Both the position numbers and the translations under genes were made by a program. A stretch of DNA of 41,902 nucleotides from a virus (taxonomy: Duplodnaviria; Heunggongvirae; Uroviricota; Caudoviricetes): the IMG/VR virus record IMGVR_UViG_2778261315_000003. One strand, 5' to 3'. Positions 7,620 to 34,696 of this stretch are shown here, one piece after another. Numbering within the stretch: the first letter of the stretch is position 1; every line of letters starts with the position of its first letter. The notes under the pieces are model-generated. The model was given only the letters and a program-made list of their open reading frames with translations. It made no database searches and had not been told where the DNA came from.

Positions 7620-8348
7620 CTATCGTTTCGCTTTGTGCTCATCCCAGCACGTTTTGCACCATGCCATTAAGCCGTCCGCATTTTGATTATTAGGGTAAAA
7701 GCTGGTTCGTTTTCTGCGGACATTACAAATTGGGCACCACTTCATATGGCGTGTATTCTTTGGGCCATCGAGACACCTTGCACACCATTTAGTCAATCCA
7801 TCTGGATTTTTTGACGATTTCCTGAATTTTTCATATGGAAGGTTTATTCTGCATCGCAAGCACTGCTTGCTACCACTTGAAACTCTGTTAGCTGATTCTT
7901 CTTTTGGCGGCGATACAGAAGGTATTCTTGCTGGCTCTGATATTGCCTGAGGTGCTTTTTTAGATGACTGAGACGATATGTCATCACCAGGGAATCTTCC
8001 ATGATATGCCGGACGCGTTGACACTCCAGGTGGAATCTCAGCTGTAAACGGCTTTGGCTGAATCAGTTGCCTCTCTTTTGCTAACTCCTGCTGTTTATAA
8101 TATGTCTGGATTACCGCACTATCATAAGCAGGAGGTGCGGAAATATTAGGCGCATTACCTCCAGTTTTTTGAAACTGAGTAGAGGTGTGTTCTATCACCT
8201 GTGTACGATTAATCGTTATCTCCCCATCTTCGGTCTTTATCGTTTTGTTATGATTAACGACCGTACGATCAGAGATCTTAGTCTTGTTCTGGTTGATAAC
8301 GTAAATAATCACCGCAACCACACCAACAACTATCCAGAAAACTTCCAT
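7620..8348 (-). CDS. membrane-anchored protein with Pro-rich linker and tandem C4 zinc-ribbon-like repeats
   Basis: 242 aa; N-terminal TM FWIVVGVVAVIIYVI; repeated C-x2-C ... NPDGL..WC..C units near C-terminus; own promoter region with two operators upstream. Confidence 0.6.
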   Translation of the reverse strand: MEVFWIVVGVVAVIIYVINQNKTKISDRTVVNHNKTIKTEDGEITINRTQVIEHTSTQFQKTGGNAPNISAPPAYDSAVIQTYYKQQELAKERQLIQPKPFTAEIPPGVSTRPAYHGRFPGDDISSQSSKKAPQAISEPARIPSVSPPKEESANRVSSGSKQCLRCRINLPYEKFRKSSKNPDGLTKWCARCLDGPKNTRHMKWCPICNVRRKRTSFYPNNQNADGLMAWCKTCWDEHKAKR

Positions 8349-8476: not shown

Positions 8477-8743
8477 ATTTACATCGCACTCCTCTTGTGC
8501 CATAGTAATCGGGCACTGGCAAAATCCAGTGCCGGGATTGGTCTCCCGGATTACTACAGAGGCACATATGCCGCATAAGCGGTTTTTTTATGTGTAAAGC
8601 GCACCTATTCTATGGTGGGCTGTGTGGGGGCACCGAAAGGTGCGCCGGGTTCCTTTGTAGCCGGTAAGACCAACTCTGCACAGTTCACCACCATCTGATT
8701 GGTCTCAGCGGTGGTGATTAACCTAACTACAAAGGTGATCGCC

Positions 8744-14400: not shown

Positions 14401-14886
14401 ACGACCGCCACGAACGACAGCGCCGAACGGAATAAACATAGAAATCGCATTGAATGGATCTGCTAATCTCATTGCTACAGAAGAGACTGTACCAGCAAAT
14501 CCCAAGCCTGAATTGTATTCCATGTCAGCTCTCTGCTGATCGATTCGATGTTTAATTGCCATTGTTTCTTCATGCGAACCGGAGTTGATAAACGAATCTG
14601 CAAAATCTTCATAGCCTTTAATATCTGCTGCATCGTTATCAAATGGGTTATATCCTTCAACCCTGTCAAACTGACTGAAAGGAGCACTGGCAATAAAGCT
14701 ACCCAGCGTGTTATCTATACGAAATGCTGCTTGTCTAGACCTTTGAACGCGTTGATCACTGGTAAATGGGTTCACAGCAGAAAGCAAAGAAGGTGTTTCC
14801 ATATAGAAATTACTGTCATCAGGTGCTGCTATTTGCTGAATATCCTCGCCAAGCAACTCTTTAGGATCCTGTTCATATATCGGCAT
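11497..14886 (-). CDS. internal virion (ejection) protein, T7 gp16-like
   Basis: 1129 aa; position after gp15-like gene; C-terminal region (..MITQFKTFIFAQHN.. / Gly-rich end) resembles T7 gp16 C-terminus by recall. Confidence 0.7.
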   Translation of the reverse strand: MPIYEQDPKELLGEDIQQIAAPDDSNFYMETPSLLSAVNPFTSDQRVQRSRQAAFRIDNTLGSFIASAPFSQFDRVEGYNPFDNDAADIKGYEDFADSFINSGSHEETMAIKHRIDQQRADMEYNSGLGFAGTVSSVAMRLADPFNAISMFIPFGAVVRGGRIAETAGRFALANAAGSVASEAALQATQEARSPMESVSNVVVDALVGGILGAGAQLLAGPSAREAVVNSVGNHLRGMDSPQSIGAAQVFNTTLDQEQLAGLGLANKTLSVTPAGRLAQSPSLVSRQINQQLAENNYFFAKNDEGLATFTAVETKIKQYDAMLYKQMEATRDAYQQYSKSVSARGVKRMNFIDFNEAVGMAMRRGDQSDIPEVSQAAARIRPIFETTKARMQELGILPEDIDVVTAKSYLPRIYKFDKILSDRTEFRGRIANWIQGISAKGADKAGQRIEKINSLLKTAEESAPRADALASEIAEAEKWSGKKILLMEELDKRNKLISQETDTQARLTRIEKELAETLSEKLQARMMKESSDLKTRLDDIAQAKSELPVYQRHMELLDNPRKYRSELRRLQKRTNSTTRLNASRERALKQMEPLSREEAEDAADEIVNKIIGAPSGLVPADIIPERLVGRAGFTKSRTLLIPDERIEDFLESDVNYIMESYLRQVAPEIELTAQFGRKDMGEQIRQVSEEYTRLIKEAKTPKRRAALEKQREADIRDITAMRDRLLGTYGAPQDPRSFFVRAGRVARNINFLRLLGGMTVSAATDLMRPMMQHGLRKSLGPMVSMLKNMDSVKIATRDLREMAVGLDYVLSTRTKAIADLTDPYSRRSAAERGLNWMTQKFGNWTLMNQWNSALKSWSGMIVQSRILDAARQVSAGGTLSKSEMRKMAQVGINEDVLRRIGEQFGKHGEDMDGLLTGHSHLWDDRFAREIFQSAVLKDVDSVIVTPGVGDTPLFFSKEGWKMITQFKTFIFAQHNRVLVSGIQQGDAAFYLGALGTIALGSMVYMMKQKLSGRDIDYSWNNLVKEGIDRGGMLGWLSEPLNTVENISGGRFGLGAMFGAPPVSRFQSRNAIGALLGPTFDLGGDAATVANGVLNGEFDSQQTHAVRKMLPFQNLWAISPLLNKVEEQMK

Positions 14887-17636
14887 TATTTGCCCCCTGC
14901 GTATATATTGCTCGGAAGGTAATTGGCTGAACCATAACCGAATGGTTTGGTCAGATCTGGAGGAGTATATCCATCTTTATTGCTGAACTGCGGCAGCGGA
15001 TTGCCTTCTCTCCGCACTCTAGCCTCATCAACACGCTGTTGCTGGAACTGAATGGTTTGCCTGTACATTGGAGATGTCAGCTGATCCGGCTTGAAACGAA
15101 CAGGGAGACCATTTTCTCCAATATAATTTCTCGGTTCTATCGCTCCGTTTGCGTCAGGCTGTAAAACCATAACAGCATAACTCCTATCCCTTGCCGTAAG
15201 GCCATCAGAAACAAGTATTAAGTCCGTATCACTGCGAGGACCGCCAAAGGATTTTGATTTAAGCTCGTGTTTTTCCTGCTCCCACTGCCCCTGTATCCAG
15301 TTACCAGCACCATTATTTACTCCGTACAATGCCTCAGGTGCATACTTCATAACCTCTGCTTTGCCATTAACTGTAGAAACTCCCCAGGTGGTTCTGATCA
15401 TGGCATTGGTCATTTTCTCAGCCTGTTCTGCATCGCCACCTGTCTGTACAAAGTTAGCATCGTAAATTGTCTGGTAATCTCGCTGATAGGCCGCATTTGA
15501 TTTTCCTGGATCGGTAATATCCGGAGACCACGAACCAAAGGAAGTCAGACTGCTGGCGTTATTTTGTGCAGCAGTTGCCCTCGCCGCGACATATTTTTTG
15601 TCTCGCATGGCAGTGGAAAGCATCTGTTTCATTCGGTCATCCTGTTGGAAAACCTGGCTGTAAGCCATATCAACAGCCTTATCCTCCGGCACGCCAGCGC
15701 GGGAATAATCGTAAACCTTGCCGTAAAATGCCATCGTACTTTTATCAAGTGTTGCCGCTGCCGCCGGATTATTATCGAATAACTGACCGTAGAATTTTGC
15801 CATCGGGACAACCAGCGCAGGATCTCTTGATGTTGCTCCACTGTTAAGCATTGTTTTAACCTGAGTTGGTATCATGCCGCTTTTAGTTGTGACGGTGACC
15901 AGTGTATTGATGCTCTGCGGATCAGATATGGAAAACGAAGGCGCGATATCCTGCGCGAAATAACGGTCTACCGCTGCCTGATTGTTTTTGTCGTTCGGGT
16001 CCAGCGGGAAGTTATTTTGCATTGAAGACACGAACCTGTTTCTTCCCTGCTGAATCTCCCACTCCCTATCCATCTCTTTAAATTTGGCCTGCATTTTCTC
16101 CCAGCGTTGCTGGTTAGCTGCAAATCCAGGAGTGTTTGGATCCTGTGGACGTAAACGTTCAAGAATGTCTTGTCGTCCTTCTGGAGTGAGGTCTTTAGCG
16201 GCACCAATGACACCTCCATATTGTATCTGCGCCTGCATATCCTTCCACTTCATAGCGCCAATGCGCGGACCATTGGCCCGGATAAAATCGTCCTCAGAAG
16301 GTAACTTCTCAGGTTTCAATCCTTCATCAAGGGCTGAATATGCATCTTTAACTACGGTGCTAAGCTGGTCCGCATACTGCTGGCGGTACTGATTTCTCAG
16401 CTCATTAGCCTGCCTCAATGCCTGTATTTGCATTTGAGGGCTCATAGCGTCAAATGCCGCATTGCCCGTATAACGCTTAGGTGAATCAAGGTTAGTTAGA
16501 CCAAGGGCTGCCGAGATACCAGTTTCAAGCTGTTCGGTGCTATAAGGCATACTGCCATTTTCGTGTTTAATAATCCCAGCACATAAAGCAGCTAGTGTCT
16601 TTGGGTTAGAGATATCAAGCTGATCATTCTCCCCAACACCAAGCTCACTACACAATGCCCTAATATAAGCATCAGTATTATTACCATCACTAGCCGGAGC
16701 ATAGCGATTAACAATCTCGCTAACGGTGTCATAGCCTTGACGCTGGTAAGACAACATATTTTTACCCAACGCGCGGATTCCATGCTCAGGGGTAGCAAAC
16801 GTTGCAAAACGTCCATCGCTACCGATCTGACCTTCCCACGGGTTAGATTTGCTCGCTTCAATATTACCAGGGTTATTATTACGTAAACCACGAGCATCCA
16901 ATGAATTACCATGTGATATTGCACGACTCACACCATCAAGATCCCCTGGCTCTCCATTAACCTGAAGAAACTCGTTGTATTTTTGAGCGATATTTCCTAT
17001 CCATGCTTGCTGCCCCATTTGTTCCTTGAGCTGAGTTTTCTGCTGAACACGCCACTCATCAGGAAGCCCATGCGCATCAGCGTATTGATCAATAGATTCA
17101 AATCGCTGCTTGGCTAAATCGACAAATGCTTGGTTATCGCTATATAGCCCCGCAGACTGAGTGACAGCCAATGCATTTCCTGACAAATACGTTTGATCTT
17201 GGAATTGCTGAAACTGCCCAACTTCATATCGACGTGCCTGATTGTAATAAGACTGCATAGACTGCTGGAGTTGAAAGGATAATTTATTCCTTTCCTCACT
17301 TTCAGGAATTGAGCCTAATAATGCCTGAGCCCTTTCCTGCATATTTTTCATAACAGCGTCACTCTGACCAAGAGCGTTTTTACCCTGTTTAGAAATCAGC
17401 CCATTTTCAGGGTTGTTAATCTGGTCATCTGCAAATTGGTTAAATTGCAGTAACGCCTCCTGGGCCATAGCAACATTCGCTTTCTGCCTGGCTTCACCAT
17501 ATGCCACCGCATACTGATCTGCGACATTCGCCAGCACCTGACCTGCTTGAGGAACATCGAAGGTCTGAAAACCACCGGTTTGCACACCACGACTTTGCAC
17601 CTGGCGTCCGGATGTAGTAGGAACAACAGGCATCAA
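14886..17636 (-). CDS. internal virion protein, T7 gp15-like, with central conserved motif block
   Basis: 916 aa; gene order gp14-gp15-gp16; central block RGLRNNNPGNIEASKSNPWEGQ...FATFATPEHGIRALGKNMLSYQRQGYDT looks like a conserved enzymatic or binding domain. Confidence 0.65.
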   Translation of the reverse strand: MMPVVPTTSGRQVQSRGVQTGGFQTFDVPQAGQVLANVADQYAVAYGEARQKANVAMAQEALLQFNQFADDQINNPENGLISKQGKNALGQSDAVMKNMQERAQALLGSIPESEERNKLSFQLQQSMQSYYNQARRYEVGQFQQFQDQTYLSGNALAVTQSAGLYSDNQAFVDLAKQRFESIDQYADAHGLPDEWRVQQKTQLKEQMGQQAWIGNIAQKYNEFLQVNGEPGDLDGVSRAISHGNSLDARGLRNNNPGNIEASKSNPWEGQIGSDGRFATFATPEHGIRALGKNMLSYQRQGYDTVSEIVNRYAPASDGNNTDAYIRALCSELGVGENDQLDISNPKTLAALCAGIIKHENGSMPYSTEQLETGISAALGLTNLDSPKRYTGNAAFDAMSPQMQIQALRQANELRNQYRQQYADQLSTVVKDAYSALDEGLKPEKLPSEDDFIRANGPRIGAMKWKDMQAQIQYGGVIGAAKDLTPEGRQDILERLRPQDPNTPGFAANQQRWEKMQAKFKEMDREWEIQQGRNRFVSSMQNNFPLDPNDKNNQAAVDRYFAQDIAPSFSISDPQSINTLVTVTTKSGMIPTQVKTMLNSGATSRDPALVVPMAKFYGQLFDNNPAAAATLDKSTMAFYGKVYDYSRAGVPEDKAVDMAYSQVFQQDDRMKQMLSTAMRDKKYVAARATAAQNNASSLTSFGSWSPDITDPGKSNAAYQRDYQTIYDANFVQTGGDAEQAEKMTNAMIRTTWGVSTVNGKAEVMKYAPEALYGVNNGAGNWIQGQWEQEKHELKSKSFGGPRSDTDLILVSDGLTARDRSYAVMVLQPDANGAIEPRNYIGENGLPVRFKPDQLTSPMYRQTIQFQQQRVDEARVRREGNPLPQFSNKDGYTPPDLTKPFGYGSANYLPSNIYAGGK

Positions 17637-23948: not shown

Positions 23949-24650
23949 TTATTTGCCATAGAGCACTTCGGCCGCACTACGCTGGCCTTCATTACCACCG
24001 GTGACCATGCCATCTTCAGACATCGCCTTTCCGATTTTCACGAACGTTTTGACCAGATCAGGGTGATTACCCAGCCCGGTGGTGTTCAGATATTCTTTGA
24101 GTTCAGGTGTCCCGAACTGGTCAAGCGCACGCTGTGCGGCGCTAAGGTTAGAAATCAACTTGTCGCCACCGATTTCTTTGTCAGCTTTTACATCCGCAGC
24201 CCACTGCTCGGTTGTTTTCTGCCAGGCTTCTGCCTGGCGCTGCTGAACACCTGCCAGAATCTTCGGATAAGCATCAACCAGCTTTTGCGCTTGCTCGTTG
24301 GTCAGGTTTAGTTCTCGCGCCACCGGCTCGAATTCCTTCAACGCTTCTGTATCCAGCTCTACGCCTTCGGCAGCCTGAAACTCGTACTTCTCAGGCGCAC
24401 CCTCTGGTTTATCGCCGTCCTTTTTTTCATCCTGCTTATCGTTTTCAGGCTTTTTGTCATCAGCAGGTTTATCGCCATCAGCAACAGGTTGTGGCTTATC
24501 ACCTTCCGGTTGTGATGGATCACCAACTGGAGCAGGGTTATCACCTGCAGGCGCTGACGGTTCTGACGCAGCCGGAGCTGCTCCACCATCGACTGGTTGC
24601 TCATTGCAAAGACGGCGATACAGCAAACGCTCAAATAAATTCATGATCAC
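23949..24650 (-). CDS. scaffolding protein
   Basis: 233 aa; acidic Pro/Asp/Lys-rich low-complexity N-terminal half, helical C-terminal half; between portal and capsid. Confidence 0.6.
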   Translation of the reverse strand: MIMNLFERLLYRRLCNEQPVDGGAAPAASEPSAPAGDNPAPVGDPSQPEGDKPQPVADGDKPADDKKPENDKQDEKKDGDKPEGAPEKYEFQAAEGVELDTEALKEFEPVARELNLTNEQAQKLVDAYPKILAGVQQRQAEAWQKTTEQWAADVKADKEIGGDKLISNLSAAQRALDQFGTPELKEYLNTTGLGNHPDLVKTFVKIGKAMSEDGMVTGGNEGQRSAAEVLYGK

Positions 24651-24943
24651 TCCTGTTCACTGGCCTCTTTGGCCATCTTCAAATACTGTTCAGGGCAATG
24701 CGCCATAACGCGCTGAAACAGTTCCAGCGCCAGATTGCGTTGCCCCTCATTAAATGCCATTGCCATAGCGTCCATCGGTGAGATAGCGGAAAACACACGG
24801 CCTTTCTCCAGCACCGACCAGACAACGCGACGCCCCTGTTCACTGCTCATGACAAAGCGAATGTCATCAATTTCACGCTGTGCCATGTCACGTTGCTTAC
24901 GGGCGTTTTCTTCTTTCAGTTGATCATCTTCGTAATCTGTCAT
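24647..24943 (-). CDS. hypothetical small head-module protein
   Basis: 98 aa acidic ORF coupled between portal and scaffold. Confidence 0.45.
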   Translation of the reverse strand: MTDYEDDQLKEENARKQRDMAQREIDDIRFVMSSEQGRRVVWSVLEKGRVFSAISPMDAMAMAFNEGQRNLALELFQRVMAHCPEQYLKMAKEASEQE

Positions 24944-26619
24944 TGTGATTGCCCACCCTGACCACTAACTGCATTCGCCATAGCTGACAAAACACTCGGA
25001 TCCGAAGTTTTAGCTTCGCTTAGCGTCTTGGCGCCCTGTGCCGCCGCCATTCCCATCGCCATCATTTGTTGCTGCTGTTGCTGCTGTGCCCGTTGCTGGC
25101 GAGCCTGCTCAACCTGTTCCTGCGGAACAATGACGGTTGGAGACACTCCGGACATATCAGCGAATGCATCGATCGCCTGATCAACATTGAGTTTGTCGAG
25201 AGCTTCTGGTTTCGCTTGCGCAAGTTGACCAATGAAGTTAACCGTGGACGCCAGACTGGACAGGCCGATAGACTTCTGCGCCTGAGCCATGACGGAAATG
25301 TATTCGACCTTCAGGGGCATGCCTTCCATCGCGTCAGGCGGTGGCGGCAGCATGTTTTTACGCACCATCATCGAGAAAGCGCGGTCAATGAGAGGATTAA
25401 GACATTCGTCGTTCAGACGCTCCAGAACCGGCCCCAACATCAGAAGCTTTTCTTCTTTCATTTCGATCACTGCTTCAACAGGCATCGAGCGGGTATTGAT
25501 GTTCTGCAACATCATGAACAGATCGACAAAGTAGGCGCTGTTAATGATTTGGCGAGTGTCCTGAATGTCTGCTACCAGATCTGCTGTACTGGGGTTAACC
25601 AGATAAGCAGGCCTGAAACCATCCTGACCAGTAATCTGATCGATATACGTGATGTCGCCAGGAAGAAGGGAGGCGCGCTGATTCTTGAGGGAAGTCGGAG
25701 CAACCATCGGCGGATTGGTGGCTTTATCAATCAACTGCGACTTGCGCTTCTGGAGAAGCTGCAATGCCTTAACAGGTCCAAGCGCCAGCATACCCGGGCA
25801 TGATGATCCATAAACATCTTCGCCGTTAACTTCCCAGCGCGGAGCCATAATTGGAAACTCATCGAATCCGGACTCACGCAACAACTTGTCGTTATCGCCA
25901 CCAACCTCGTAATAAACCGATTTGAATGGCTTGTTCTTGCTATCCAGCTTCGATGTATCGCGGTCAATGTTCGGGTAAACCGAATGCATCACTTCAATCC
26001 ACTTCTCGTAGGTGCCGCTTTCCCACATGCTTTTTACGGATTCGCTGACGTTATTTAGCCCGAACTCCTGAACAAGCTGACGAACAGTCATAGAGAACTT
26101 GCGAAAACAGGTGTCCACACTGCCACGAGGTGAGTTAGCCAGGTAGTAACTGCCTATCGGGAATGGCATTGTGCGAATGATGTCATCGTCATCCTCCAGT
26201 ACCGCCATTGCACCAGTGCTGTATGTGCCGAGGCTTCCGTATAACTGCGGCAGCGACTGATAGAGATTCGACTTATTGAACATATCGTTCATGCGGTTCT
26301 GCACCGCCTCAAGCCACAACTTAACAGGGCCATAATCCATCATTTCAGGATCTGGCGTAGCCAGGCGAAACCACGGACGCGCGGGGCTTGTGATGCCTGA
26401 CATCATGCCGCTGGCGAGAGTTCGCGCCGCCATAGTCCCGGTCGAATCAATAATGCGTGTATTGCGTCGATCGTTACGGTTGACCTCAGAAGTCAGAAAG
26501 CGGGAACCACGCGGGTTGATGTAATCACTCAACTCGCGCCAGTGCGGCTCGAACGACTGACGCTCGCTTTCAAGTTGTGCGAACTGTTTGTTCAATCGCT
26601 CTTTAGTTGTTTCCGCCAT
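24940..26619 (-). CDS. portal (head-to-tail connector) protein, T7 gp8-like
   Basis: 559 aa; C-terminal QQRAQQQQQQQMMAMGMAAAQ tail resembles the T7 gp8 C-terminus (QQKMAQQSMQMGMDNG) by recall. Confidence 0.85.
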   Translation of the reverse strand: MAETTKERLNKQFAQLESERQSFEPHWRELSDYINPRGSRFLTSEVNRNDRRNTRIIDSTGTMAARTLASGMMSGITSPARPWFRLATPDPEMMDYGPVKLWLEAVQNRMNDMFNKSNLYQSLPQLYGSLGTYSTGAMAVLEDDDDIIRTMPFPIGSYYLANSPRGSVDTCFRKFSMTVRQLVQEFGLNNVSESVKSMWESGTYEKWIEVMHSVYPNIDRDTSKLDSKNKPFKSVYYEVGGDNDKLLRESGFDEFPIMAPRWEVNGEDVYGSSCPGMLALGPVKALQLLQKRKSQLIDKATNPPMVAPTSLKNQRASLLPGDITYIDQITGQDGFRPAYLVNPSTADLVADIQDTRQIINSAYFVDLFMMLQNINTRSMPVEAVIEMKEEKLLMLGPVLERLNDECLNPLIDRAFSMMVRKNMLPPPPDAMEGMPLKVEYISVMAQAQKSIGLSSLASTVNFIGQLAQAKPEALDKLNVDQAIDAFADMSGVSPTVIVPQEQVEQARQQRAQQQQQQQMMAMGMAAAQGAKTLSEAKTSDPSVLSAMANAVSGQGGQSQ

Positions 26620-26633
26620 TTCAATGACTCCGG

Positions 26634-26840
26634 TTACTGACCAAGCAGCGTTTTACCGCTGGTATTAGCGGTTGATGTGTCGCCCTGAGAACCGGTAAGC
26701 AGCGTAGAACTACGACCAGCAGCAGCGCGACGGCGACGTGTTTCTTCGTCGCGGGCATCAACAACGGCGGCATCCTGCTCCTGTGGTGCTGCCTGAACTT
26801 CTGGTGTTGCAGGCACTGATGGTGAGCTACCCATGCACAT
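26634..26840 (-). CDS. small hypothetical protein preceding portal
   Basis: 68 aa; good E. coli-like codon usage; preferred over overlapping frame 26621..26860. Confidence 0.4.
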   Translation of the reverse strand: MCMGSSPSVPATPEVQAAPQEQDAAVVDARDEETRRRRAAAGRSSTLLTGSQGDTSTANTSGKTLLGQ

Positions 26841-26930
26841 ATCAATGACTCCGTACGCAATTAAATTATTACCAATTTAACCACATATGATTTATTTATC
26901 GTAGACAGTTGACATTTAACGCGCCAATTA

Positions 26931-26945
26931 TTACCTTTCAGGTAA
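26931..26945. promoter_or_regulatory. palindromic operator-like site TTACCTTTCAGGTAA
   Basis: Perfect TTACC-N5-GGTAA upstream of the head operon; identical to site at 7249. Confidence 0.6.
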
Positions 26946-27267
26946 CCAAAGAGTTCATTCCGGTTACTAACCTGACTGGCTTGTCGTTAAATTGAACAGG
27001 TGGAGTGAGCTTTTATTTTGAGCAGTACGGCGTATGGCACATGCGCCGATAGCGGTCTGGATACGTTTAAGGGGCACCCTCCCTTGCTCGGGCAAACGAA
27101 CCAGGTAGCCGGAATGTGCAAGTCGAGCGGTTTTATTCCGCGCACGGGGATTCACCATCCCGGCGATTCGGTGTGACGCCTCGGAAGAGACGAGGGTACA
27201 ACGATGAGAGCATTTATGGAGCCGCGACAAAGTGTGGTGCCTTAACAGGCTAAGTGCTCTCAGCGTT

Positions 27268-27344
27268 GTGGCATTAGCTCAGTTGGACAGAGCAACCGCC
27301 TTCTAAGCGGTTGGTCGCAGGTTCGAATCCTGCATGCCACGCCA
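27268..27344 (+). tRNA. tRNA-Arg (anticodon UCU)
   Basis: Cloverleaf folded by hand: acceptor GTGGCAT/ATGCCAC, D-arm GCTC..GAGC, anticodon stem ACCGC/GCGGT with loop CTTCTAA, T-arm GCAGG-TTCGAAT-CCTGC, discriminator G, encoded CCA. Confidence 0.9.
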
Positions 27345-27387
27345 GAATCACGCCTAAGGACCGTGATGCCAGAAGTTCCAGGTGCTT

Positions 27388-27430
27388 GGCGGTGATGGTT
27401 TCCCTTGAAGGACTATCACCGCCCTTTTTA
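27388..27430 (+). terminator. stem-loop with U-run downstream of tRNA
   Basis: GGCGGTGAT-N18-ATCACCGCC followed by CTTTTT. Confidence 0.4.
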
Positions 27431-27507
27431 CAGCAGGACGCCATTGCGATGACTTCATGCTGTAAACCCGTACAGCCACGGAAGGCATAACTCATTGCTT
27501 CCAGTTC

Positions 27508-27531
27508 GCCCGGTTCGCCGGGCATTTTTTT
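27508..27531 (+). terminator. rho-independent terminator (UUCG tetraloop)
   Basis: GCCCGG-TTCG-CCGGGC followed by ATTTTTTT; only 12 bp upstream of the next ORF. Confidence 0.6.
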
Positions 27532-27542
27532 AAGATGAGATC

Positions 27543-27962
27543 ATGAAGACAATTGATATGTTGGCTAAGTATCTAAATGAATGGCCATTAAAATATTCTC
27601 GTATCGTTCAGGCTGAAGACTGCATTTTTTATGGCGTTTTTGCTGGTAATGAAATGCATTACGAAGTAATTCAGAGTGAGGGACTGGCCGGGTTAACTCT
27701 TAGCGAAGACCATGGTACTAGCGTTACGTTCCATGACTGGATAACAGCACAACGTTCTGAAATGGAAAAAGGCGATGTGTTTGATATTTCTCGCTCTGTT
27801 TGCGCTAAAGCAAAAAGTGATAATGATTACATGAGCGAACACTTATACAACATGAAGTTACAATGCCTGCATGCGGCGCTTATTCAGAATAGGCAATTCG
27901 ATAAAACAAGTGCCATCAATATTGCGGAAGCCATCAACGCTGGATTTGATGCCATTAAGTAA
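27543..27962 (+). CDS. moron protein of unknown function (139 aa, cytoplasmic)
   Basis: Plus-strand ORF between portal and terminase, opposite to all neighbours; no signal peptide; followed by terminator. Confidence 0.55.
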   Translation: MKTIDMLAKYLNEWPLKYSRIVQAEDCIFYGVFAGNEMHYEVIQSEGLAGLTLSEDHGTSVTFHDWITAQRSEMEKGDVFDISRSVCAKAKSDNDYMSEHLYNMKLQCLHAALIQNRQFDKTSAINIAEAINAGFDAIK

Positions 27963-27975
27963 CGCCGTGACATGT

Positions 27976-28010
27976 CACAAACAGCCAGCCGATGAGCTGG
28001 CTTTGTTTTA
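27976..28010. terminator. terminator hairpin between convergent moron and terminase genes
   Basis: AGCCAGC-CGATGA-GCTGGCT followed by TTGTTTT. Confidence 0.5.
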
Positions 28011-28052
28011 TCCTCATCAGAGGATATCAACGACATTATCCCCTCAAGCGGA

Positions 28053-29528
28053 TTAAGCATAGGGATCGTAATCTGTGATGGCCTTGCCTTGCTGGTTCTG
28101 CTGCCCGGGAATTCGCAGACGCTTAGACACAGGGAACGCAAACGTCATCAGTAGCGCATCGCCTTTACCCGGAGAACGCCCAAGCCGCTCCTTGATATCT
28201 TCCTTCGGTTCGATAACGATTTTACCGTCCACTCGAACTTTGTACTCTGCCGCCGACAGGTCGTCCGCTGTTTCCTGGTCATCCAGCATGCCGCCCAGCC
28301 TCAGCCATGTCTTGCATGAGTTGAACATCTCCCCACGCTTGTTGAGCATCTGCGGGTCAGTAGACGCGCCACCGAACGGAACAAGTTGCCATGTGCGCCC
28401 CCAACCGTCACCGATTGACTTCAGCCCGGTACCGTAACCGAAGTCGATGAACACCGCGTCAGCCTGATACTGGTCTTCAAAGTCAGCGATGCGCTTCGCC
28501 ATAATCAGATCGTCGGTGGTCTTGTTGCCAGTCCACAGCACCTTACTGTGCAGCCCCTGCCGCAGGTATATCACCGCGTCATCAACACCGGAGTATGCAG
28601 GGTCAACGCCGATTATCACCGGAGCATGTGCCACCTGCGCAGCAGTTACCACCCGTTTCATTGCCTCGTCAGTAAGACCGGTAGGGATAAACTGCAATTC
28701 AGATGCATCAGGGAATATGCCACGCACACGGATTTTAACGAAGTCGCTGTCTTCCCCGTAGTCATCAACCCATTTCTGCAACTGCTGTTTGTTAGTGCCT
28801 TCCACCGTCCGGCTGTCAATCTGCGCAGTTTTCCAGCGGTGTTTGTATTTGCGAAAACATTCGCGAAAACGTCCGGTATTACGCGTCGGGTTTCCGAACG
28901 CCACCCAGATAATCTCAGTGTCTTCGTCCGTAAGCGCACCCTCAGCAACTTCCCACACCAGATCCGCAATGTTCGACGCTTCATCGAATACCACGATGAT
29001 GCGTTTGCGCTCGTTGTGTAGTCCGGCGAATGCCTCAGTGTTGTGCTCAGACCAGGGGATTGCGTCAGCTCGCCACCGCTTGTCGTGCCCAGGATCATTG
29101 CTGTACATCGCGGTAGCGGTACAGGTAAACCAGTCTTTCGTGATAGCAAGGTTAGACCACTTGATAATTTCCGGCCAGGTCTTCGTTCGTAGCTGGTTGT
29201 CGGTGTTAGCGGTCACCACAACCTTACAATCCTCGCAAGTGGACATGCCCCAGTTGATCAGCATTGAGATGAATGCGGATTTACCAATACCGTGACCTGA
29301 AGCGCGTGCCAGCATAAGCGGCTGATAGCGCGTCTCTGGATTCTGCAGGTGATCACGTATCTCTCGGAACGCATCAGCCTGCCACTGACGTGGGCCGGTA
29401 GCATGTGCCAGTTCAGTCCCTTCTTCCCCCCACGGGAACGCATAGAGGGCATAGCCAAGCGGATCGTGAGTGAACCCTGCAATATCCTCGATCAACTGCT
29501 CTTCAGGAGATAACGCTGTATCTGTCAC
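28053..29528 (-). CDS. terminase large subunit
   Basis: 491 aa; Walker-A-like SGHGIGKS, ATPase and nuclease halves; preceded by small-subunit gene. Confidence 0.85.
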   Translation of the reverse strand: MTDTALSPEEQLIEDIAGFTHDPLGYALYAFPWGEEGTELAHATGPRQWQADAFREIRDHLQNPETRYQPLMLARASGHGIGKSAFISMLINWGMSTCEDCKVVVTANTDNQLRTKTWPEIIKWSNLAITKDWFTCTATAMYSNDPGHDKRWRADAIPWSEHNTEAFAGLHNERKRIIVVFDEASNIADLVWEVAEGALTDEDTEIIWVAFGNPTRNTGRFRECFRKYKHRWKTAQIDSRTVEGTNKQQLQKWVDDYGEDSDFVKIRVRGIFPDASELQFIPTGLTDEAMKRVVTAAQVAHAPVIIGVDPAYSGVDDAVIYLRQGLHSKVLWTGNKTTDDLIMAKRIADFEDQYQADAVFIDFGYGTGLKSIGDGWGRTWQLVPFGGASTDPQMLNKRGEMFNSCKTWLRLGGMLDDQETADDLSAAEYKVRVDGKIVIEPKEDIKERLGRSPGKGDALLMTFAFPVSKRLRIPGQQNQQGKAITDYDPYA

Positions 29529-30121
29529 TGATTACCATCCTGACGTTCTTTGAGTCGCTTCCTGGCTGCTGCTATGCGATCAGCAATTGTCACATTCACA
29601 TTAACATCCAGACGTTCTTTGAACGCGTTGACATCAACATGCTTACCAATCAGCTCAAGGTTCTTCACCTTGTCAGGCCATTTAATTTTTTTGAGGATTG
29701 TCTCTATCGAATCCTCGTTCATGTTCATGATGGTCGACGACAGATCAAAGCCACTAAGCGTAGTGCGCCAGATTTTCGGCCACTCACGGATTGGTTTAAG
29801 GCTCCCATCGTCGTTGAGGATGTCGATCACGTCCATCTGGTCGATCTCCACCAGGCGCATGAGAACGTAATCAGCACTGACGCGCATTCGTTTGTTGCGC
29901 TCCTCCATCAACTCGGCAATCCGTTTTTGAATGCGTTCATCGCGCATCATGACACTGGCTTTAACTGCCGCTGTATTTGGGGAGAATCCTGCGTTAATCG
30001 CTGCCTGAGTCTGGTTTTCAGGCGTTTTGATGTATGACTGACAATAAGCCTCCTGCATTGCTGTTAGTGGCTTAAATTGCGTTGATTTGCGTTTATAGGT
30101 TTTAGGTTCAGCAGGCATCAT
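29525..30121 (-). CDS. terminase small subunit
   Basis: Motif AYCQSYIKTPENQTQAAINAGFSPNTAAVKAS typical of small terminase HTH family; start placed at internal Met (ORF extends to 30199). Confidence 0.65.
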   Translation of the reverse strand: MMPAEPKTYKRKSTQFKPLTAMQEAYCQSYIKTPENQTQAAINAGFSPNTAAVKASVMMRDERIQKRIAELMEERNKRMRVSADYVLMRLVEIDQMDVIDILNDDGSLKPIREWPKIWRTTLSGFDLSSTIMNMNEDSIETILKKIKWPDKVKNLELIGKHVDVNAFKERLDVNVNVTIADRIAAARKRLKERQDGNQ

Positions 30122-30195
30122 AACCACCGTGGTAATTGTTACCGTTGTGGTAATAATACCATGCAAAATAAAGCCGCCATAGTTGGCGGCAGTAT

Positions 30196-30429
30196 TCAAA
30201 ATCCATCAAATTCATCGTAAAAACTCTCGTCAAGATACCCTTCCCATTTACCGCGAATGAAAATTACATCCTCGCCGCAAGGGTGCTGACTGTCGATAAC
30301 TATATCCCTCCTGGCGCAACCATACTTATGCATGAGAAATTTAACCTCTTTCGGAAAATTTGCTGAGTTATCTCTCATATCTTCAAGGTCGTAGCGTATT
30401 TTTGGCATAACACCTTCGTGACATGTCAC
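30196..30429 (-). CDS. hypothetical protein
   Basis: 77 aa ORF, coupled in early/nin-like operon. Confidence 0.4.
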   Translation of the reverse strand: MTCHEGVMPKIRYDLEDMRDNSANFPKEVKFLMHKYGCARRDIVIDSQHPCGEDVIFIRGKWEGYLDESFYDEFDGF

Positions 30430-30767
30430 ACTATTAATTTCGTTTCATGCCAGCCTTTAGTCACCCAGCATTGCGAGTCACCATTACACGGGCATGAATT
30501 CACAGGAACTCTCTCGCCGCACTTACCGCAACGTTTTCTGCTGATCGATTTTATACGCCCGCGCACGCGTGCATCATCCTGGCGGATCAGTAACGCTATA
30601 TACTCACCAAATTCGTAAGGCGCACGCCCGGGGCGACGCGTGGCACAGTTACGCTCCAGCATTTCAATTTCCTGAGCATCAAGCACAATCTCCAGCTTAC
30701 GTACACCGGATTCAGCTTGTCTGGCTCTCTGAGCGGCTTTGCGCTCTGCTGCTGATTTAGCCATCAA
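30426..30767 (-). CDS. hypothetical protein with Cys-rich C-terminus
   Basis: 113 aa; basic coiled N-terminus, C-terminal CGKCG...CPCNGDSQC. Confidence 0.45.
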   Translation of the reverse strand: MMAKSAAERKAAQRARQAESGVRKLEIVLDAQEIEMLERNCATRRPGRAPYEFGEYIALLIRQDDARVRGRIKSISRKRCGKCGERVPVNSCPCNGDSQCWVTKGWHETKLIV

Positions 30768-30791
30768 TATTCACCTTTATTGCGAACATAC

Positions 30792-31013
30792 TTAGCTGTG
30801 TGTTGCCGATGTGCGGAGATTCTCTTCTATCAATTCCACGCATTCTGACCGACGAACAAATAATTCGTCTCCGTTATGAATTACGACATAGCCGTAAGCG
30901 GTTTTACGCATCACATCGAACTCATCCCATACGGAAATACCGCACTCTGCTAACGAGCAATCCAAATAATCTTCCGGATGCTTGTCGGTGTTATTAATGA
31001 TGCGAATCCTCAA
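30792..31013 (-). CDS. hypothetical protein
   Basis: 73 aa ORF. Confidence 0.4.
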   Translation of the reverse strand: MRIRIINNTDKHPEDYLDCSLAECGISVWDEFDVMRKTAYGYVVIHNGDELFVRRSECVELIEENLRTSATHS

Positions 31014-31043
31014 ATCTTTTCACCTTTAAGGATAAGTTGCATG

Positions 31044-31826
31044 TTAGCCACGGTTAACCTCCTTCGGCGGTTCTGGTAGCAGCATCCAGAACAAGGCGTT
31101 CCCTAACCACGATAAAGTGCCGTCGCTCAACTCCACGTATTCCCCTTGCACCTGTCCTGCCATATACTCACCGTGCTTTGAATAAATTAAAATCCAATCA
31201 TCTTGAGCGGGCATTCGCTCACTACAGCTTATCCAACCATCCGGAGTTACCGGATAGTTGCGCATTGCGACCTTTAATGCCTCATAGAAGCAACCTTTCA
31301 GATTGTTGAACTGACGCCCATTTAGCGGGACGTGTTCAGTCAGCATGTTGTGTAATTTCCATGCCGCGTCGTTTACTTCGCTGGATGACAGGGGAGGCAA
31401 CTTGTAAGTTTGGCTTACAGGTTCGGCACCATGAAGCATGGCGGCTCGGCAGGCGTTTTCTGCGATAGATGCGCATTCTTCAACGACATCGCGCACCGAT
31501 TCTGGAAATTCATCTATGCACGCGCGGATTGCTGTAGCGGCATCTGGCACAGATACCTGCGCTGGCTGGGCAGTGTAAACGATACCTTCAACCCAATGCG
31601 CACCATCTTCATTGCAATGGCACTTCGACTCTAGCGGCTCATCCAAACCTTCAGCACCACACCCGCTACAGGTGAAGAGTTTGCGACTTTTGGCTTCCAG
31701 CGATGCCAGTGCAATTCGTGCCAGTTCTTCCGCTTCTTCTGCTGGCAGTACAACGTTGCTACCAGGTCCGTATGTTTCGCGCCACTGCTTGATTGTCAGC
31801 AGTCGCTCTTTGGTAATAGTGGTCAT
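31044..31826 (-). CDS. DUF551-like prophage protein
   Basis: 260 aa; C-terminal GWISCSERMPAQDDWILIY matches the DUF551 signature as recalled. Confidence 0.5.
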   Translation of the reverse strand: MTTITKERLLTIKQWRETYGPGSNVVLPAEEAEELARIALASLEAKSRKLFTCSGCGAEGLDEPLESKCHCNEDGAHWVEGIVYTAQPAQVSVPDAATAIRACIDEFPESVRDVVEECASIAENACRAAMLHGAEPVSQTYKLPPLSSSEVNDAAWKLHNMLTEHVPLNGRQFNNLKGCFYEALKVAMRNYPVTPDGWISCSERMPAQDDWILIYSKHGEYMAGQVQGEYVELSDGTLSWLGNALFWMLLPEPPKEVNRG

Positions 31827-31836
31827 TTGTTATGCC

Positions 31837-32034
31837 TCAATACACGAAATCTGTTTTAAATTCATGGTTACATTCTGGACAGCATGTTTCGTAACCTTTT
31901 ATTTCTTCACATGCCTGTTTAGCTCCAGAAAACTCCCAGAAATCTGGATCACAAAGCAGATCGAAATTGTGACCACATTTGGGACATTCGGTATCAAGTG
32001 ACAGACTCCAGTAGGCAGTGGTGTTTTTATCCAT
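31837..32034 (-). CDS. small zinc-ribbon protein
   Basis: 65 aa with CPKCGH ... CCPEC pairs. Confidence 0.45.
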   Translation of the reverse strand: MDKNTTAYWSLSLDTECPKCGHNFDLLCDPDFWEFSGAKQACEEIKGYETCCPECNHEFKTDFVY

Positions 32035-32035
32035 A

Positions 32036-32821
32036 TCACTCTCCTTTGATGCGAATGCCAGCGTCAGACATCATATGCAGATACTCAACTGCATCCTGAA
32101 CCCATTGACCGCCAATCCCGTAATAGCGATGCGTAATGATGTCGATAGTTACTAACGGGTCTTGTTCGATTAACTTCCGCAGAAACTCTTCCAGGTCACC
32201 AGTGCAGTGCTTGATGACAGGAGTTTTCCCAGGATGGCGAACAACAAGAAACTGATTTCCGACTTCACGGACTTCGTTGCTTTCCAGTTCTGCAATGCGC
32301 TTCTCTGAGGCTTCCAGCTTCTCGCGCATATCGTCAACGTACTCGACCAGAGAACCGCCAGCAGGAATTTCGCACTCCTCGACCAGTTGGAAGTAGATAT
32401 CAGCTGCGGCCCGTGTGTTGCTATGCCTAGCGTCGCCCATCTCACCTTCACGAAGAGCATCGCGTTCGGCGGTAAGATTGGCTATTTTGCTGTCTTTGCC
32501 TTCCAGCTCAACGCGCAGCCTCCCAACCGTAAGCGCAATATCCTCGTTCTCCTGGTCGCGTGATTTGATGTATTGCTGGTTTCTTTCCCGTTCATCCAGT
32601 AGTGCCAGCACGGTTTCTGGTCCGGCCAGAAATTTGAAGGCGTTGAGCGCATCAATATCAACGCCGTAATCTTTAAGTTCCTGTTCGCTTATCAGATCAT
32701 CATCAACTGGCAACATTAACAGGCGTTCCATTGCTGGAATTGCACGTTCCGCCACCTCACGCAATGCCTGGTAATTAATTTCGCTCACTGGTTGCCTCCT
32801 TTGCGAATCTGTTCCGCCCAT
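32036..32821 (-). CDS. hypothetical coiled-coil protein (possibly Ea22-like)
   Basis: 261 aa; N-terminus INYQALREVAERA resembles Ea22-family starts by recall; central coiled coil. Confidence 0.45.
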   Translation of the reverse strand: MGGTDSQRRQPVSEINYQALREVAERAIPAMERLLMLPVDDDLISEQELKDYGVDIDALNAFKFLAGPETVLALLDERERNQQYIKSRDQENEDIALTVGRLRVELEGKDSKIANLTAERDALREGEMGDARHSNTRAAADIYFQLVEECEIPAGGSLVEYVDDMREKLEASEKRIAELESNEVREVGNQFLVVRHPGKTPVIKHCTGDLEEFLRKLIEQDPLVTIDIITHRYYGIGGQWVQDAVEYLHMMSDAGIRIKGE

Positions 32822-33396
32822 TCTTCAAGGGATTTCTCCGCATATTCACCAGACAGGCCATCAATCGGATGCGGTTCATTAGCCAACTCTTCTTTCGCTG
32901 ACAGAATCATGCGTGTAACGTCGAAAACTTCACGTAAAGACTTATTGATAAATCCGTGATTGAACGCAGCAGCAAGGCGGCTGGCGGTATAGTTAATCCC
33001 CTCGTTGCGTGCTTCTGCACGAATTTCAGCCAGGAAAGCGTCGGTGGCTGGGGTTTCTGGCATACAGTCAGCAGCGTCGAAATACTCTTCACTTTTGTCA
33101 TCCCAAATCCAGCAATCATCTTTGATGAACTTGTTCAGCCCCGCATTCTCCGCCGCCAGCGCCGAAAACTTCTCGTGTGCCAACTTAACAGCCGAATCAG
33201 CCTGCTTAATTGACTCAATCGCTCTCTGGTGGTCTTCGGCCAGCGCATTAGCACGCACCAGTTGCACTTCCAGTTGCGCTGCCAAATCGCTGATCAGCTT
33301 TGCCACACTGCGCATATCAACGGCACCACATTCTGCTTTCAGTTCCGAAGCCATCTCATGCCCGGCGGCAACTAACCCTTTGATATTACTTTCCAT
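32785..33396 (-). CDS. hypothetical coiled-coil protein
   Basis: 203 aa, helical, acidic. Confidence 0.45.
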   Translation of the reverse strand: MESNIKGLVAAGHEMASELKAECGAVDMRSVAKLISDLAAQLEVQLVRANALAEDHQRAIESIKQADSAVKLAHEKFSALAAENAGLNKFIKDDCWIWDDKSEEYFDAADCMPETPATDAFLAEIRAEARNEGINYTASRLAAAFNHGFINKSLREVFDVTRMILSAKEELANEPHPIDGLSGEYAEKSLEEWAEQIRKGGNQ

Positions 33397-33457
33397 CTTT
33401 ACCCTCGCTTATCCACATAACTTATTGATTACATTGATAACTAAAAAGATCGTCTAT

Positions 33458-33802
33458 TCAGAACTCTTCGATGTTCCAGCCACCACCTGCTTTCTTTGGC
33501 TTAACCGTTACCCCGATGATTCGGAACGGATACTGATCTGCGGCGACTTTGGTTTTCACCCTGGCGTCGTCGGTCCAGAAACCTTTCACTTCGTGCAGTT
33601 CCATCTCGCCGGTGGCGAGCATCACAGCAAAATCGGGCGTATAGAACGTGTTGTCAGCTAACCGCAACTTGATACCCTCGAATCGATACCAGGCGATTTC
33701 CCCTGCACGTTTACGCTGCTCAAGGTGCTGGCAATACGCAGATTCTGTTTTGTTCATCTGGCCTGTTTTGAGTCGACCAAGAGCCTGTATCTGTTTTCTC
33801 AT
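33458..33802 (-). CDS. DUF1064-like phage protein, putative nuclease
   Basis: 114 aa; pattern AGEIAWYRFEG...YTPDF...HEVKG resembles DUF1064 by recall. Confidence 0.45.
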   Translation of the reverse strand: MRKQIQALGRLKTGQMNKTESAYCQHLEQRKRAGEIAWYRFEGIKLRLADNTFYTPDFAVMLATGEMELHEVKGFWTDDARVKTKVAADQYPFRIIGVTVKPKKAGGGWNIEEF

Positions 33803-33805
33803 GAT

Positions 33806-33820
33806 TTACCCCTGAGGTAA
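33806..33820. promoter_or_regulatory. palindromic operator-like site TTACCCCTGAGGTAA
   Basis: Perfect TTACC-N5-GGTAA, 4 bp upstream of the 33802 start codon. Confidence 0.6.
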
Positions 33821-33867
33821 TTAAAAACCACATAAGACACGAAATCAATAGATCTTAGAACATTTTA

Positions 33868-33882
33868 TTACCTAGCAGGTAA
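33868..33882. promoter_or_regulatory. palindromic operator-like site TTACCTAGCAGGTAA
   Basis: Perfect TTACC-N5-GGTAA; second site in same intergenic region, 48 bp centre-to-centre from previous. Confidence 0.6.
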
Positions 33883-33919
33883 TTATCAAAACGTAAAAAA
33901 ATGCGCTATCGCGCTGGTA

Positions 33920-34696
33920 TTACTTGATAAATCCTGCCGCCTTTCCCCGCCTGTATTCCTCCATCAGCCACTGCGCCGGTGTTATTCCCCCCAGGGTAGC
34001 GGCGTTAGGCATACACCCGAAACTTCGCCCTGGTGGATGGTAAACGTCTCTCCCTGTGTCCGGAGGCGTACTCATGGGTTCTGGCTTTGCCTGTATGCTG
34101 ATCACCGGATCGGGTATCTGCTGTCCGGAAGCCACCTTTTTCGCCCAATCATCAAGCAGCCTGCGCGCGTGTTTCTCAACCTCAATCTCGCTAAGCTGGC
34201 GCTGATACATTGCACGGCGGGTATCACATACGACCCAGTACATAACCGGATGCCGCCACGGGAATCTTTCGGGACCACCAGGATATAAACTTTTTTCCTT
34301 GCTGTACCGGTGAAACTCCGCCATCACATCGTCAATGGTGACGCCAAGAACCATCTTGCTGTCTTTACACCACTTGATAAATTGCCCTGGCGACGGCCAG
34401 AACGGAGATTCACTGGCGCGGGCGTGGCGCATACCAGCGTTAACCTGTTCCATTGTAGTGATCCCATTCTCCAGAAACGCAAGCATCCATTGCTTACGGA
34501 ATTCATTAAGTTTGTTCTGCTCCCTTATGGTCGAAACGCTTGCAGGAAATGCAGCCTGTAACTGGACAAATAGTTCATTGAAAATTCTAGCGACCTGCTC
34601 CTTTTTGCCATTGCTGTCACGCCGCTCTTCATGCACAGCAACACCATGCTCACGTAAGCGATCGTACTCATTGAGAAGTTCTGGAGTTGATTTCAT
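33920..34696 (-). CDS. replication protein P-like (helicase loader)
   Basis: 258 aa; strong resemblance to lambda P by recall (AFPAS...QWMLAFLENGITTMEQVNAGMRHAR...FWPSPGQFIKWC). Confidence 0.85.
   Translation of the reverse strand: MKSTPELLNEYDRLREHGVAVHEERRDSNGKKEQVARIFNELFVQLQAAFPASVSTIREQNKLNEFRKQWMLAFLENGITTMEQVNAGMRHARASESPFWPSPGQFIKWCKDSKMVLGVTIDDVMAEFHRYSKEKSLYPGGPERFPWRHPVMYWVVCDTRRAMYQRQLSEIEVEKHARRLLDDWAKKVASGQQIPDPVISIQAKPEPMSTPPDTGRDVYHPPGRSFGCMPNAATLGGITPAQWLMEEYRRGKAAGFIK

Follow-up and report, generated by a model that had tools for sequence, protein, structure and literature searches.

What is a transfer RNA (tRNA) gene doing between the terminase and portal genes of a phage, behind a long leader without a convincing protein-coding gene? 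The question is raised by IMG/VR record IMGVR_UViG_2778261315_000003 (Caudoviricetes), a stretch of 41,902 nucleotides (nt) analysed in full and referred to here as the window, in which a tRNA-Arg(UCU) gene lies at 27268-27344. An earlier note, made from the sequence alone, read the locus as a cargo tRNA with a non-coding leader and two downstream terminator-like hairpins. The best explanation in our view is that 26900-27962 would form an early + strand transcription unit, probably repressor-controlled, that is mostly a non-coding RNA operon, with a tRNA that supplies rare-codon decoding and a structured leader RNA that acts on transcription elongation. We give this explanation as a whole an even chance. 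The description of the locus as an RNA operon with a tRNA is held with good confidence, and antitermination by the leader RNA is a tentative proposal that may well fail.

The leader is largely occupied by a structured RNA of about 170 nt at 27026-27197 (+ strand), hereafter the core. Its model, derived from an alignment of 23 diverse copies, has five helices and two candidate pseudoknots. The elements include a hairpin GGCGUAU-GGCAC-AUGCGCC, a long-range helix AGCGGUCUGG/CCAGGUAGC bearing a variable hairpin, an invariant segment GGUAGCCGGAAUGUGCAAG, a hairpin GGGA-UUCACCA-UCCC with a candidate pseudoknot CACC/GGUG, and a hairpin CCUCG-GAAGAGA-CGAGG. Standard pairs fill 94.8% of the pair cells in this alignment compared with 84.2% after shuffling, 15 pairs have changed on both sides, and pairing falls to 28-43% when the 3' partners are slid by 1-3 columns. 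The covariance model built from the 23 copies (R1) scores the window at 149 bits (E 1.6e-40) and was used to gather 75 distinct copies, which are 96.0% paired (85.9% in shuffles) with both sides changed in 16 pairs; as this larger alignment was fitted to the model, the 23-copy test is the cleaner. The candidate pseudoknot CACC/GGUG is jointly replaced by AACC/GGUU in lambdoid copies, and the complex fold contains invariant unpaired segments.

A core of this kind is difficult to reconcile with the simplest reading of the earlier note, a cargo tRNA behind a functionless leader and ahead of ordinary terminators. The tRNA and the terminators are indeed as described in the note, and phage epsilon15 is viable although it has lost the tRNA and most of the core. 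The region nevertheless keeps 70-83% identity across genera and phage types, and the compensatory base changes, well above both the shuffled and the slid controls, already contradict a functionless leader, which we regard as quite unlikely. No conserved open reading frame (ORF) was found in 26946-27267, so that the leader is non-coding as stated, but it is not a mere non-coding stretch, consisting mostly of structured RNA and a long stem of processing type.

Proteins encoded on the - strand are a further alternative. An 83-amino acid (aa) ORF of PhiV10p04 type (27274-27525) and an 87-aa ORF (26967-27230) correspond to hypothetical proteins annotated in some GenBank records, and PHROG 4647 matches the former. 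This match is not independent, as PHROGs derive from deposited annotations, and the 83-aa ORF lacks a Pfam match and is on the strand complementary to both terminators and the tRNA gene. Among 74 distinct copies of the core, at most 30 are open in any one frame, the copy lengths span all three modulo-3 classes and the indels are not multiples of three, which makes this reading very improbable.

The conserved block could also be a site at the DNA level, for packaging, replication, recombination or attachment, as its position between terminase and portal genes and the operator-like palindromes nearby might suggest. The core has many conserved U:G pairs, which are compatible with + strand RNA only, and because such pairs make sense on one strand only, the core is read as an RNA. 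Its orientation always follows early transcription in three genomic settings and the attachment (att) core lies elsewhere; we consider a DNA site hardly credible.

Neither Rfam nor the literature provided a name for the core. Among the 4227 models of Rfam 15 nothing overlapped 27026-27197 on the + strand at E<=10, and the core was likewise unmatched at gathering threshold over the whole window and at E<=0.05 in eight related loci; searches across ten related loci named no family for it. No description was found in the full-text literature, in which subscription journals are thinly covered, so an earlier description is possible. That the core is a widespread, apparently undescribed family of structured non-coding RNA is strongly supported.

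The distribution of the core is wide within one order of hosts. The segment 27027-27267 is about 83% identical to a segment of lambdoid phages (cdtI, mEp460, Stx2c and Stx2a phages, 2H10 and Ayreon), the first 165 nt or so of which are in turn about 80% identical to P1, P7, D6 and SJ46. An exact 19-mer, GGTAGCCGGAATGTGCAAG, occurs in more than 120 IMG/VR contigs and in species-representative genomes of a dozen Enterobacterales genera, and so far the core has been found in Enterobacterales phages only. By BLAST, the region is present in 1840 of 5426 complete Escherichia coli genomes, with 554 places on P1-like plasmids, and none of 40 sampled E. coli hits carried an annotation of the core.

Three genomic settings were observed, and in each the core points in the direction of local early transcription and is part of an early operon. 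In the uetakeviruses, the group of the window, it lies beside a predicted repressor operator. In the lambdoid examples examined (carriers include mEp460, cdtI, Stx2a_1447, Stx2k, mEp390 and BUCT708), it is on the cI strand, 100-250 nt after cI, and these carriers have no annotated ORF between cI and yfdP (in some, a ParB-type operon) and no annotated N gene. In lambda, pL, nutL and N occupy this position, at which the early-left operon begins. In copies of cdtI type, TTGACA-16-CATAAT is found together with a palindrome, about 55 nt upstream of the core. In P1, the core is found at 71023-71191, directly after trnI (tRNA-Ile2) and ahead of ban, within the ban operon, which is under C1 control and contains two further tRNAs and a dicF-like region; the 535-feature P1 record has nothing annotated at this position. 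Repressor control is annotated for P1 Pban and corresponds to a predicted operator in epsilon15; for the lambdoid phages it appears likely from the position after cI.

Two relatives show which parts can be lost. Epsilon15 (3312-3400 of its locus) retains the first 50 nt or so of the core, the rest of the core, the tRNA and half of the first terminator having been deleted between two CCCTTGATGCT repeats, of which the first lies in the loop of a core hairpin and the second in that of the terminator; therefore, the core/tRNA module is dispensable for epsilon15. Both loops carry a UCCCUUG-type motif. In ST64B, the 815-nt gap between cI (sb38) and yfdP (sb37) contains the long stem, a tRNA-like scaffold, the first terminator and a second cassette (7239-8053 of that locus, - strand). 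The core, though expected, is absent there and a different sequence of about 300 nt takes its place, which suggests that alternative 5' RNA modules exist.

Two observations on core sequences in other phages may be added. One IMG/VR phage contig has two core copies on its - strand, at 3998-4154 and 4805-4959, about 800 nt apart (115 and 157 bits). Hairpins like the last one of the core, CCNNG-GAAGAGA/GAAAGA-CNNGG, form tandem arrays of three to six downstream of the core in some prophages (L158 960-1110; downstream regions of L044, L079 and L099) and may be protein binding sites or DNA iterons.

How might the locus be transcribed? A promoter-like site at 26902-26937 (+ strand) has a -35 element TTGACA (26909-26914), a 17-nt spacer and a candidate -10 element TACCTT (26932-26937); the promoter scan made an overlapping call, TAGACA-18-AATTAT. 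The -10 element is overlapped by an operator-like palindrome without strand, TTACCT-TTC-AGGTAA (TTACCTTTCAGGTAA, 26931-26945, repeat family D3), a second copy of which, AATTATTACC, lies at 26864-26873 next to the start of the gp3-like ORF. TTGACA and the palindrome following it are kept in the E. coli, Klebsiella and Salmonella relatives (alignment A1), and the epsilon15 record annotates the equivalent palindrome as "protein_bind: repressor" with an integration host factor site beside it. Promoter and operator function are putative. Because the sole promoter-like site overlaps the operator-like palindrome, lysogens, in which the earlier note would have looked for the RNA, are probably the wrong condition for an expression test. 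Between the palindrome and the core, the 5' leader segment 26946-27025 (+ strand), taken from alignment A1, was compared with the cassettes of relatives; judged from this comparison, it looks like a decayed copy of a stem-enclosed cassette which is intact in Klebsiella relatives (GTCGTTAAAT...GGAGTGAGCTTTT). The segment is absent from the Salmonella relatives.

Downstream of the core, the layout is modular. Cassette A (27198-27269, + strand) consists of a closing stem of about 19 base pairs (bp), with arms at 27198-27216 and 27251-27269 that are 89% complementary (inverted repeat I1), around a hypervariable insert. The stem is maintained by compensatory variants in 36 distinct cassettes, with inserts from about 10 to about 170 nt. 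Being a near-perfect duplex of about 20 bp kept by selection, it is a candidate RNase III stem. Its 3' strand ends in GUU, followed by GUGG, the first part of the acceptor stem of the next module, slot B. A tiny ORF, MRAFMEPRQSVVP (ATG at 27204, with an AGA codon), was considered as a leader peptide and rejected, as its ATG is part of the stem sequence CGAUGAGAGCA and is missing from relatives that have CAGGUAAGAGCA.

Slot B is occupied by this tRNA-Arg in 30 of 130 viral copies and by another tRNA-like gene in Phytobacter prophages. In most lambdoid copies it is instead a scaffold GUGGUGAAU-GCGCAGGCUGAUGCGC-[insert]-GCCGGAGAUCAGCACCGGC-CACCAC, the tRNA shape of which is taken from minimum-free-energy folds only. 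Inserts in other phages include a hammerhead type I-like sequence with all nucleotides of the hammerhead core (28.7 bits; gathering score 34) and, inside a tRNA-like scaffold, a mimic of 16S rRNA helix 11 (33 bits, E 1e-6); these look-alikes are located at L064 384-430 and L075 4600-4646 (also in L102 and L106). Directly 3' of the slot, a hairpin AUCACG-CCUAAGGAC-CGUGAU (27347-27367, + strand), also present in the minimum-free-energy fold, follows the tRNA or tRNA-like module in many relatives, with stem variants such as CAUCGC/GCGAUG.

The tRNA itself is genuine. ARAGORN found it as the single tRNA in the window, on the + strand, with the anticodon UCU (tct) at position 35 and thus decoding AGA, and Rfam RF00005 scored it at 73.3 bits against a gathering score of 29. 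Its 3' end reads ATGCCAC-G-CCA, so that CCA is encoded, and its D loop, AGUUGGACA, has an A after GG; A20 and the discriminator are arginine identity elements of tRNAs. Copies of at least 95% identity occur in about 505 records. It is already annotated in the O157 typing phages 9 and 10, phiv142-3, SPC32H and Klebsiella phage ST512-KPC3phi13.3, whereas the phiV10 record instead has the 83-aa "hypothetical protein" antisense to it. The tRNA is therefore an ordinary member of the phage rare-codon tRNA class and not new.

The tRNA was ruled out as an attachment site. In this phage group attP/attB has been published at guaA, with the att core ATTGAGTGGGAATGATT (PMC9782041). An exact copy of this phiV10/epsilon15-type core is found at 1838-1854 (- strand), about 25 kb from the tRNA; it is single in the window, which places one prophage end or attP there. 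The best tRNA-Arg match in the core genome is 85.9% identical over nt 7-77 of the phage tRNA, which is thus not a copy of a host gene. The tRNA is internal cargo, as the earlier note had proposed, and likewise lies on the strand opposite to the flanking terminase and portal genes.

A role in codon supply is plausible. In the 38 long ORFs of the window, AGA accounts for 7.5 and AGG for 5.7 of every 1000 codons (together 13.1, or 22% of Arg codons); for 36 annotated K-12 genes, the corresponding values are 1.3 and 0.6 (together 1.85, which is 3.5% of Arg codons). The enrichment of AGR codons (AGA and AGG) over these K-12 genes is about 7-fold (Fisher p = 3e-26), and AGR codons are concentrated in large tail, injection and accessory genes. 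The AGA, AGG and AUA codons are spread unevenly, with many in 4169-7144, 11497-17636 and several small genes and almost none in the capsid, portal, protease and terminase genes, which suggests genes of different origin or different expression needs.

Alternatively, the tRNA may mainly replace a host tRNA-Arg that is cleaved or depleted in infection, for example by a colicin D-like anticodon nuclease, the codon match being secondary. In its D arm, T arm and anticodon loop, the phage tRNA agrees with the host UCU isoacceptor, while the acceptor stem differs, as the 85.9% match over nt 7-77 indicates, and in other phages the slot holds tRNA-like scaffolds with variable inserts. The anticodon stem presumably differs from that of host argU as well, and phage tRNAs reportedly can counter tRNA-targeting defences, as T5 tRNA-Lys does against PARIS. 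No defence nuclease specific to tRNA-Arg(UCU) was tied to these hosts in the material examined, and the 7-fold AGR enrichment is enough to explain the tRNA; replacement is an improbable main function.

Phage rare-codon tRNAs provide the closest parallel. Those of P1 (trnA, trnT and trnI) likewise serve codons that are rare in E. coli and are co-transcribed with non-coding RNAs in an early operon, as is likely here, and in P1 the same core RNA directly follows tRNA-Ile2. Stx phage 933W, with ileZ-argN-argO, and T4, in which stable RNAs are transcribed together with the tRNA cluster, are further examples. The window differs from these in that its tRNA has a fixed place in a conserved, modular RNA locus, a place at which most relatives have a tRNA-shaped scaffold that is not a tRNA.

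Two terminator-like hairpins follow, both on the + strand as the earlier note had described, and both with covarying stems. T1 (27388-27430) has a stem of 14 pairs (27388-27423) followed by CUUUUU; it covaries among the relatives, and lambdoid copies have homologous GGCGGU...ACCGCC-UUUUUAC hairpins. T2 (27508-27531), GCCCGG-UUCG-CCGGGC, has six G-C pairs (27508-27523) followed by U7; its stem covaries (GG/CC, AC/GU, GC/GC), and the epsilon15 record annotates it as a rho-independent terminator. As G+C-rich hairpins with a U-tract on the transcribed strand, both have the expected features of intrinsic terminators. The segment between them (27424-27531, + strand, about 105 nt) is conserved and carries, besides T2, hairpins at 27427-27466 and 27480-27502 (GGAAG...CUUCC). 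A short structured RNA of about 100 nt had been suggested here; the two further hairpins agree with a structured segment, and a small RNA as such is plausible. Its only Rfam match is a weak one to RyhB (18 bits) via the terminator.

After T2, a 139-aa ORF of PhiV10p03/epsilon15 gp50 type (27543-27962, + strand; PHROG 4846, E 3e-88; no Pfam match) completes the unit. The gene at this position is variable, with at least six unrelated N-termini joined at the same terminator-plus-Shine-Dalgarno junction, or the slot is empty; in some phages without a downstream ORF, the operator-like palindrome of the promoter region recurs directly after T2 (TTACCTTNAAGGTAA). In most relatives, the Shine-Dalgarno sequence of the gene (AAGGUGA; AAGAUGA in the window) begins right at the end of the T2 U-tract. 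No promoter-like site was found by the scan between T1 and the 139-aa ORF.

Together, these modules could work as follows. From the promoter overlapped by the operator-like palindrome, one transcript would be made that carries in order the leader, the pseudoknotted core, the stem of about 20 bp with its hypervariable insert, the tRNA-Arg(UCU), the small hairpin, T1, the small-RNA-like sequence of about 105 nt ending in T2 and the variable accessory gene. This precursor would be cut into separate RNAs, probably by RNase III in the long stem and RNase P at the tRNA 5' end, in line with the usual substrates of these enzymes. A single processed precursor is favoured because the long duplex abuts the tRNA acceptor stem and the tRNA (in P1, the tRNA 3' end) marks the boundaries. 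The mature tRNA would supply AGA/AGG decoding for the AGR-rich tail, injection and accessory genes. The core may act in cis on the transcribing RNA polymerase, like the HK022 put RNA or a nut site and possibly with host Nus factors, so that polymerase would reach the end of the untranslated operon and pass T1 and T2 to transcribe the downstream gene. Of this scheme, the tRNA, the covarying RNA structure, the order of modules, the distribution and the codon bias are shown, whereas promoter and operator, the enzymes of processing and antitermination are inferred.

The cis role in elongation is favoured because conserved terminators follow the module in the non-P1 contexts, and because the gene after T2, with a Shine-Dalgarno sequence at the U-tract, lacks its own promoter. 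It is further favoured because the lambdoid carriers have no annotated N and their YfdP has no arginine-rich motif. A 2025 paper on related N-less phages guesses at RNA-mediated antitermination (PMC12315714), and the mEp phage collection was isolated as Nus-dependent (PMC11893012), both of which point in the same direction. An N-like protein was sought and rejected, as YfdP lacks the motif and the only small arginine-rich ORF that a scan of the window found is the gp3-like one (TRRRRAAAGR). No link between the gp3-like protein and the core was seen, as epsilon15 keeps the protein without the core.

The likeness to known antitermination elements is partial. The put RNA of HK022 is about 70 nt long with two stem-loops (PMC9378689). 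By analogy with putL/putR, the core would be a structured RNA near the start of an early operon, in phages without an annotated N, with terminators after it. Put RNA suppresses downstream terminators in cis, an activity that is blocked by mutations in the zinc-binding domain of the RNA polymerase beta' subunit, and the positions of the modules here would be consistent with such a role. The core differs from put in its size and its five helices with candidate pseudoknots, it has no similarity to put in sequence or model, and there is one copy per phage. The purine-rich loop of the core hairpin CCUCG-GAAGAGA-CGAGG recalls the boxB of lambda nutL, with its GAAGA loop. Similar to boxA, UGCUCUC or UGCUCUUU is found in the 3' strand of the long stem, which has UGCUCUCAG in the window. 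In a search for the boxA consensus (GCUCUUUAACAA or CGCUCUUA), near-perfect boxA was found in 3 of 126 distinct loci, and the literal GCUCUUUAACAA stands just after the core in three relatives; a 2-fold excess of YGCUCUYW merely reflects the conserved stem. On the other side, no N-like protein is encoded nearby and boxA is not enriched overall. The long stem that encloses cargo also recalls the RNase III stems of pre-rRNA.

Several observations weigh against our explanation. With regard to elongation control, no similarity of the core to put was detectable, and R1 gave no above-noise match in HK022 24000-34000 (immunity region). The P1 core lies 2.3 kb from Pban, with no terminator seen between it and ban; a single core per phage would leave a second early operon uncovered; and in the window only one small gene lies downstream before the operon meets terL head-on. 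ST64B indicates that the framework of stem, tRNA-like slot and T1 does not need the core, and the boxA consensus 12-mer is not enriched (44 forward and 42 reverse matches). With regard to the tRNA, the codon argument is a correlation, and there are almost no AGR codons in the capsid, portal and other head genes or the terminase genes.

Instead, the core may be a self-contained, stable RNA that is released by processing and acts in trans early in infection, its target being a factor of the host or of the phage. It could sponge up a protein, serve as a decoy or anti-defence RNA or be a ribozyme, and the terminators would just end an RNA gene. In favour of this, the core moves as an independent module among three unrelated phage types, being without the stem/slot/T1 framework in P1 just as that framework is without the core in ST64B, and it is flanked by processing signals (the tRNA 3' end in P1; here, the 20-bp stem and the tRNA 5' end). 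Its fold is complex, with unpaired segments that do not vary; in lambdoid phages it is transcribed before anything else and neighbours hypervariable inserts, some of which resemble 16S rRNA helix 11 or, below the gathering score, a hammerhead, one slot holding a tRNA-like gene. On the other hand, no target, partner or catalytic motif was identified, and accumulation of the core is a prediction only. The cargo resemblances belong to neighbouring modules of other phages and not to the core, and two are below curated thresholds. A trans-acting RNA is the main rival of antitermination and about as probable, though less likely than not.

If elongation control by the core is pursued further, it might represent a new class of phage elongation-control RNA that works without a phage protein and possibly with host Nus factors. 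It would replace N or put in N-less lambdoid and Shiga toxin phages, in the P1 ban operon and in phiV10-type phages, and the stems and slot would form a platform resembling an rRNA operon from which cargo RNAs are released. This is speculation that we consider unlikely to hold in full.

Other phage RNAs are less similar. GOLLD and ROOL, which are associated with phage tRNAs, are also structured non-coding prophage RNAs adjacent to tRNAs; the core has no Rfam match to either, is much smaller and is so far confined to Enterobacterales phages. P1/P7 C4 and DicF originate in longer transcripts under repressor control, from which RNase P, RNase III or RNase E releases them as small RNAs; C4 with isrK is also present in the window, and a dicF-like region lies in the P1 ban operon. 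Their sequences and folds are unrelated to those of the core, for which no antisense target is evident. The prophage small RNAs Pas, AgvB and AsxR were considered and set aside as unrelated, mapping to the late (Q/pR') region.

The value of the locus lies in its leader RNA, which covaries strongly, has no Rfam family and is unannotated in P1, in Shiga toxin phages and in about a third of complete E. coli genomes. In lambdoid phages the core occupies the place of N and nutL and so offers a testable answer to how the early-left operon is expressed; if it acted in trans, it would be a new early phage effector. Either way, temperate enterobacterial phages carry loci organised like rRNA operons, with core, stem and insert, tRNA-like slot and terminators, non-coding RNA loci that gene callers currently fill with spurious ORFs.

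The genes around the operon run on the - strand in the order terS (29525-30199, PF03592), terL (28053-29528, named after the phiV10 and epsilon15 annotation), the gap that holds the operon, the gp3-like 68-aa ORF (26634-26840, PHROG 831) and portal (24940-26619; PF12236, E 2e-187). The region is about 98-99% identical to phiV10, the O157 typing phages 9 and 10, TL-2011b and similar phages (genus Uetakevirus) and 70-83% identical to Klebsiella, Enterobacter and Salmonella relatives, epsilon15 among them. The gene of the gp3-like protein is divergent from the RNA operon, and the protein carries an arginine-rich stretch, ETRRRRAAAGR, in its interior.

Elsewhere in the window, isrK (8513-8589, + strand, 74.7 bits in Rfam) adjoins the C4 antisense RNA (8608-8695, + strand, 78.6 bits), a pair that constitutes the P1/P7-type RNA control of an antirepressor. 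The same pair stands beside an antirepressor gene in the mEp460 and cdtI loci (L006 706-894 and L008 777-965). Two STnc100-like matches just under the Rfam threshold (43 and 38 bits compared with 47) were seen in related loci (L009 2549-2664 and L039 1183-1390), and one of them, in the P1-like plasmid L009, lies in a P1-type ban operon upstream of tciA.

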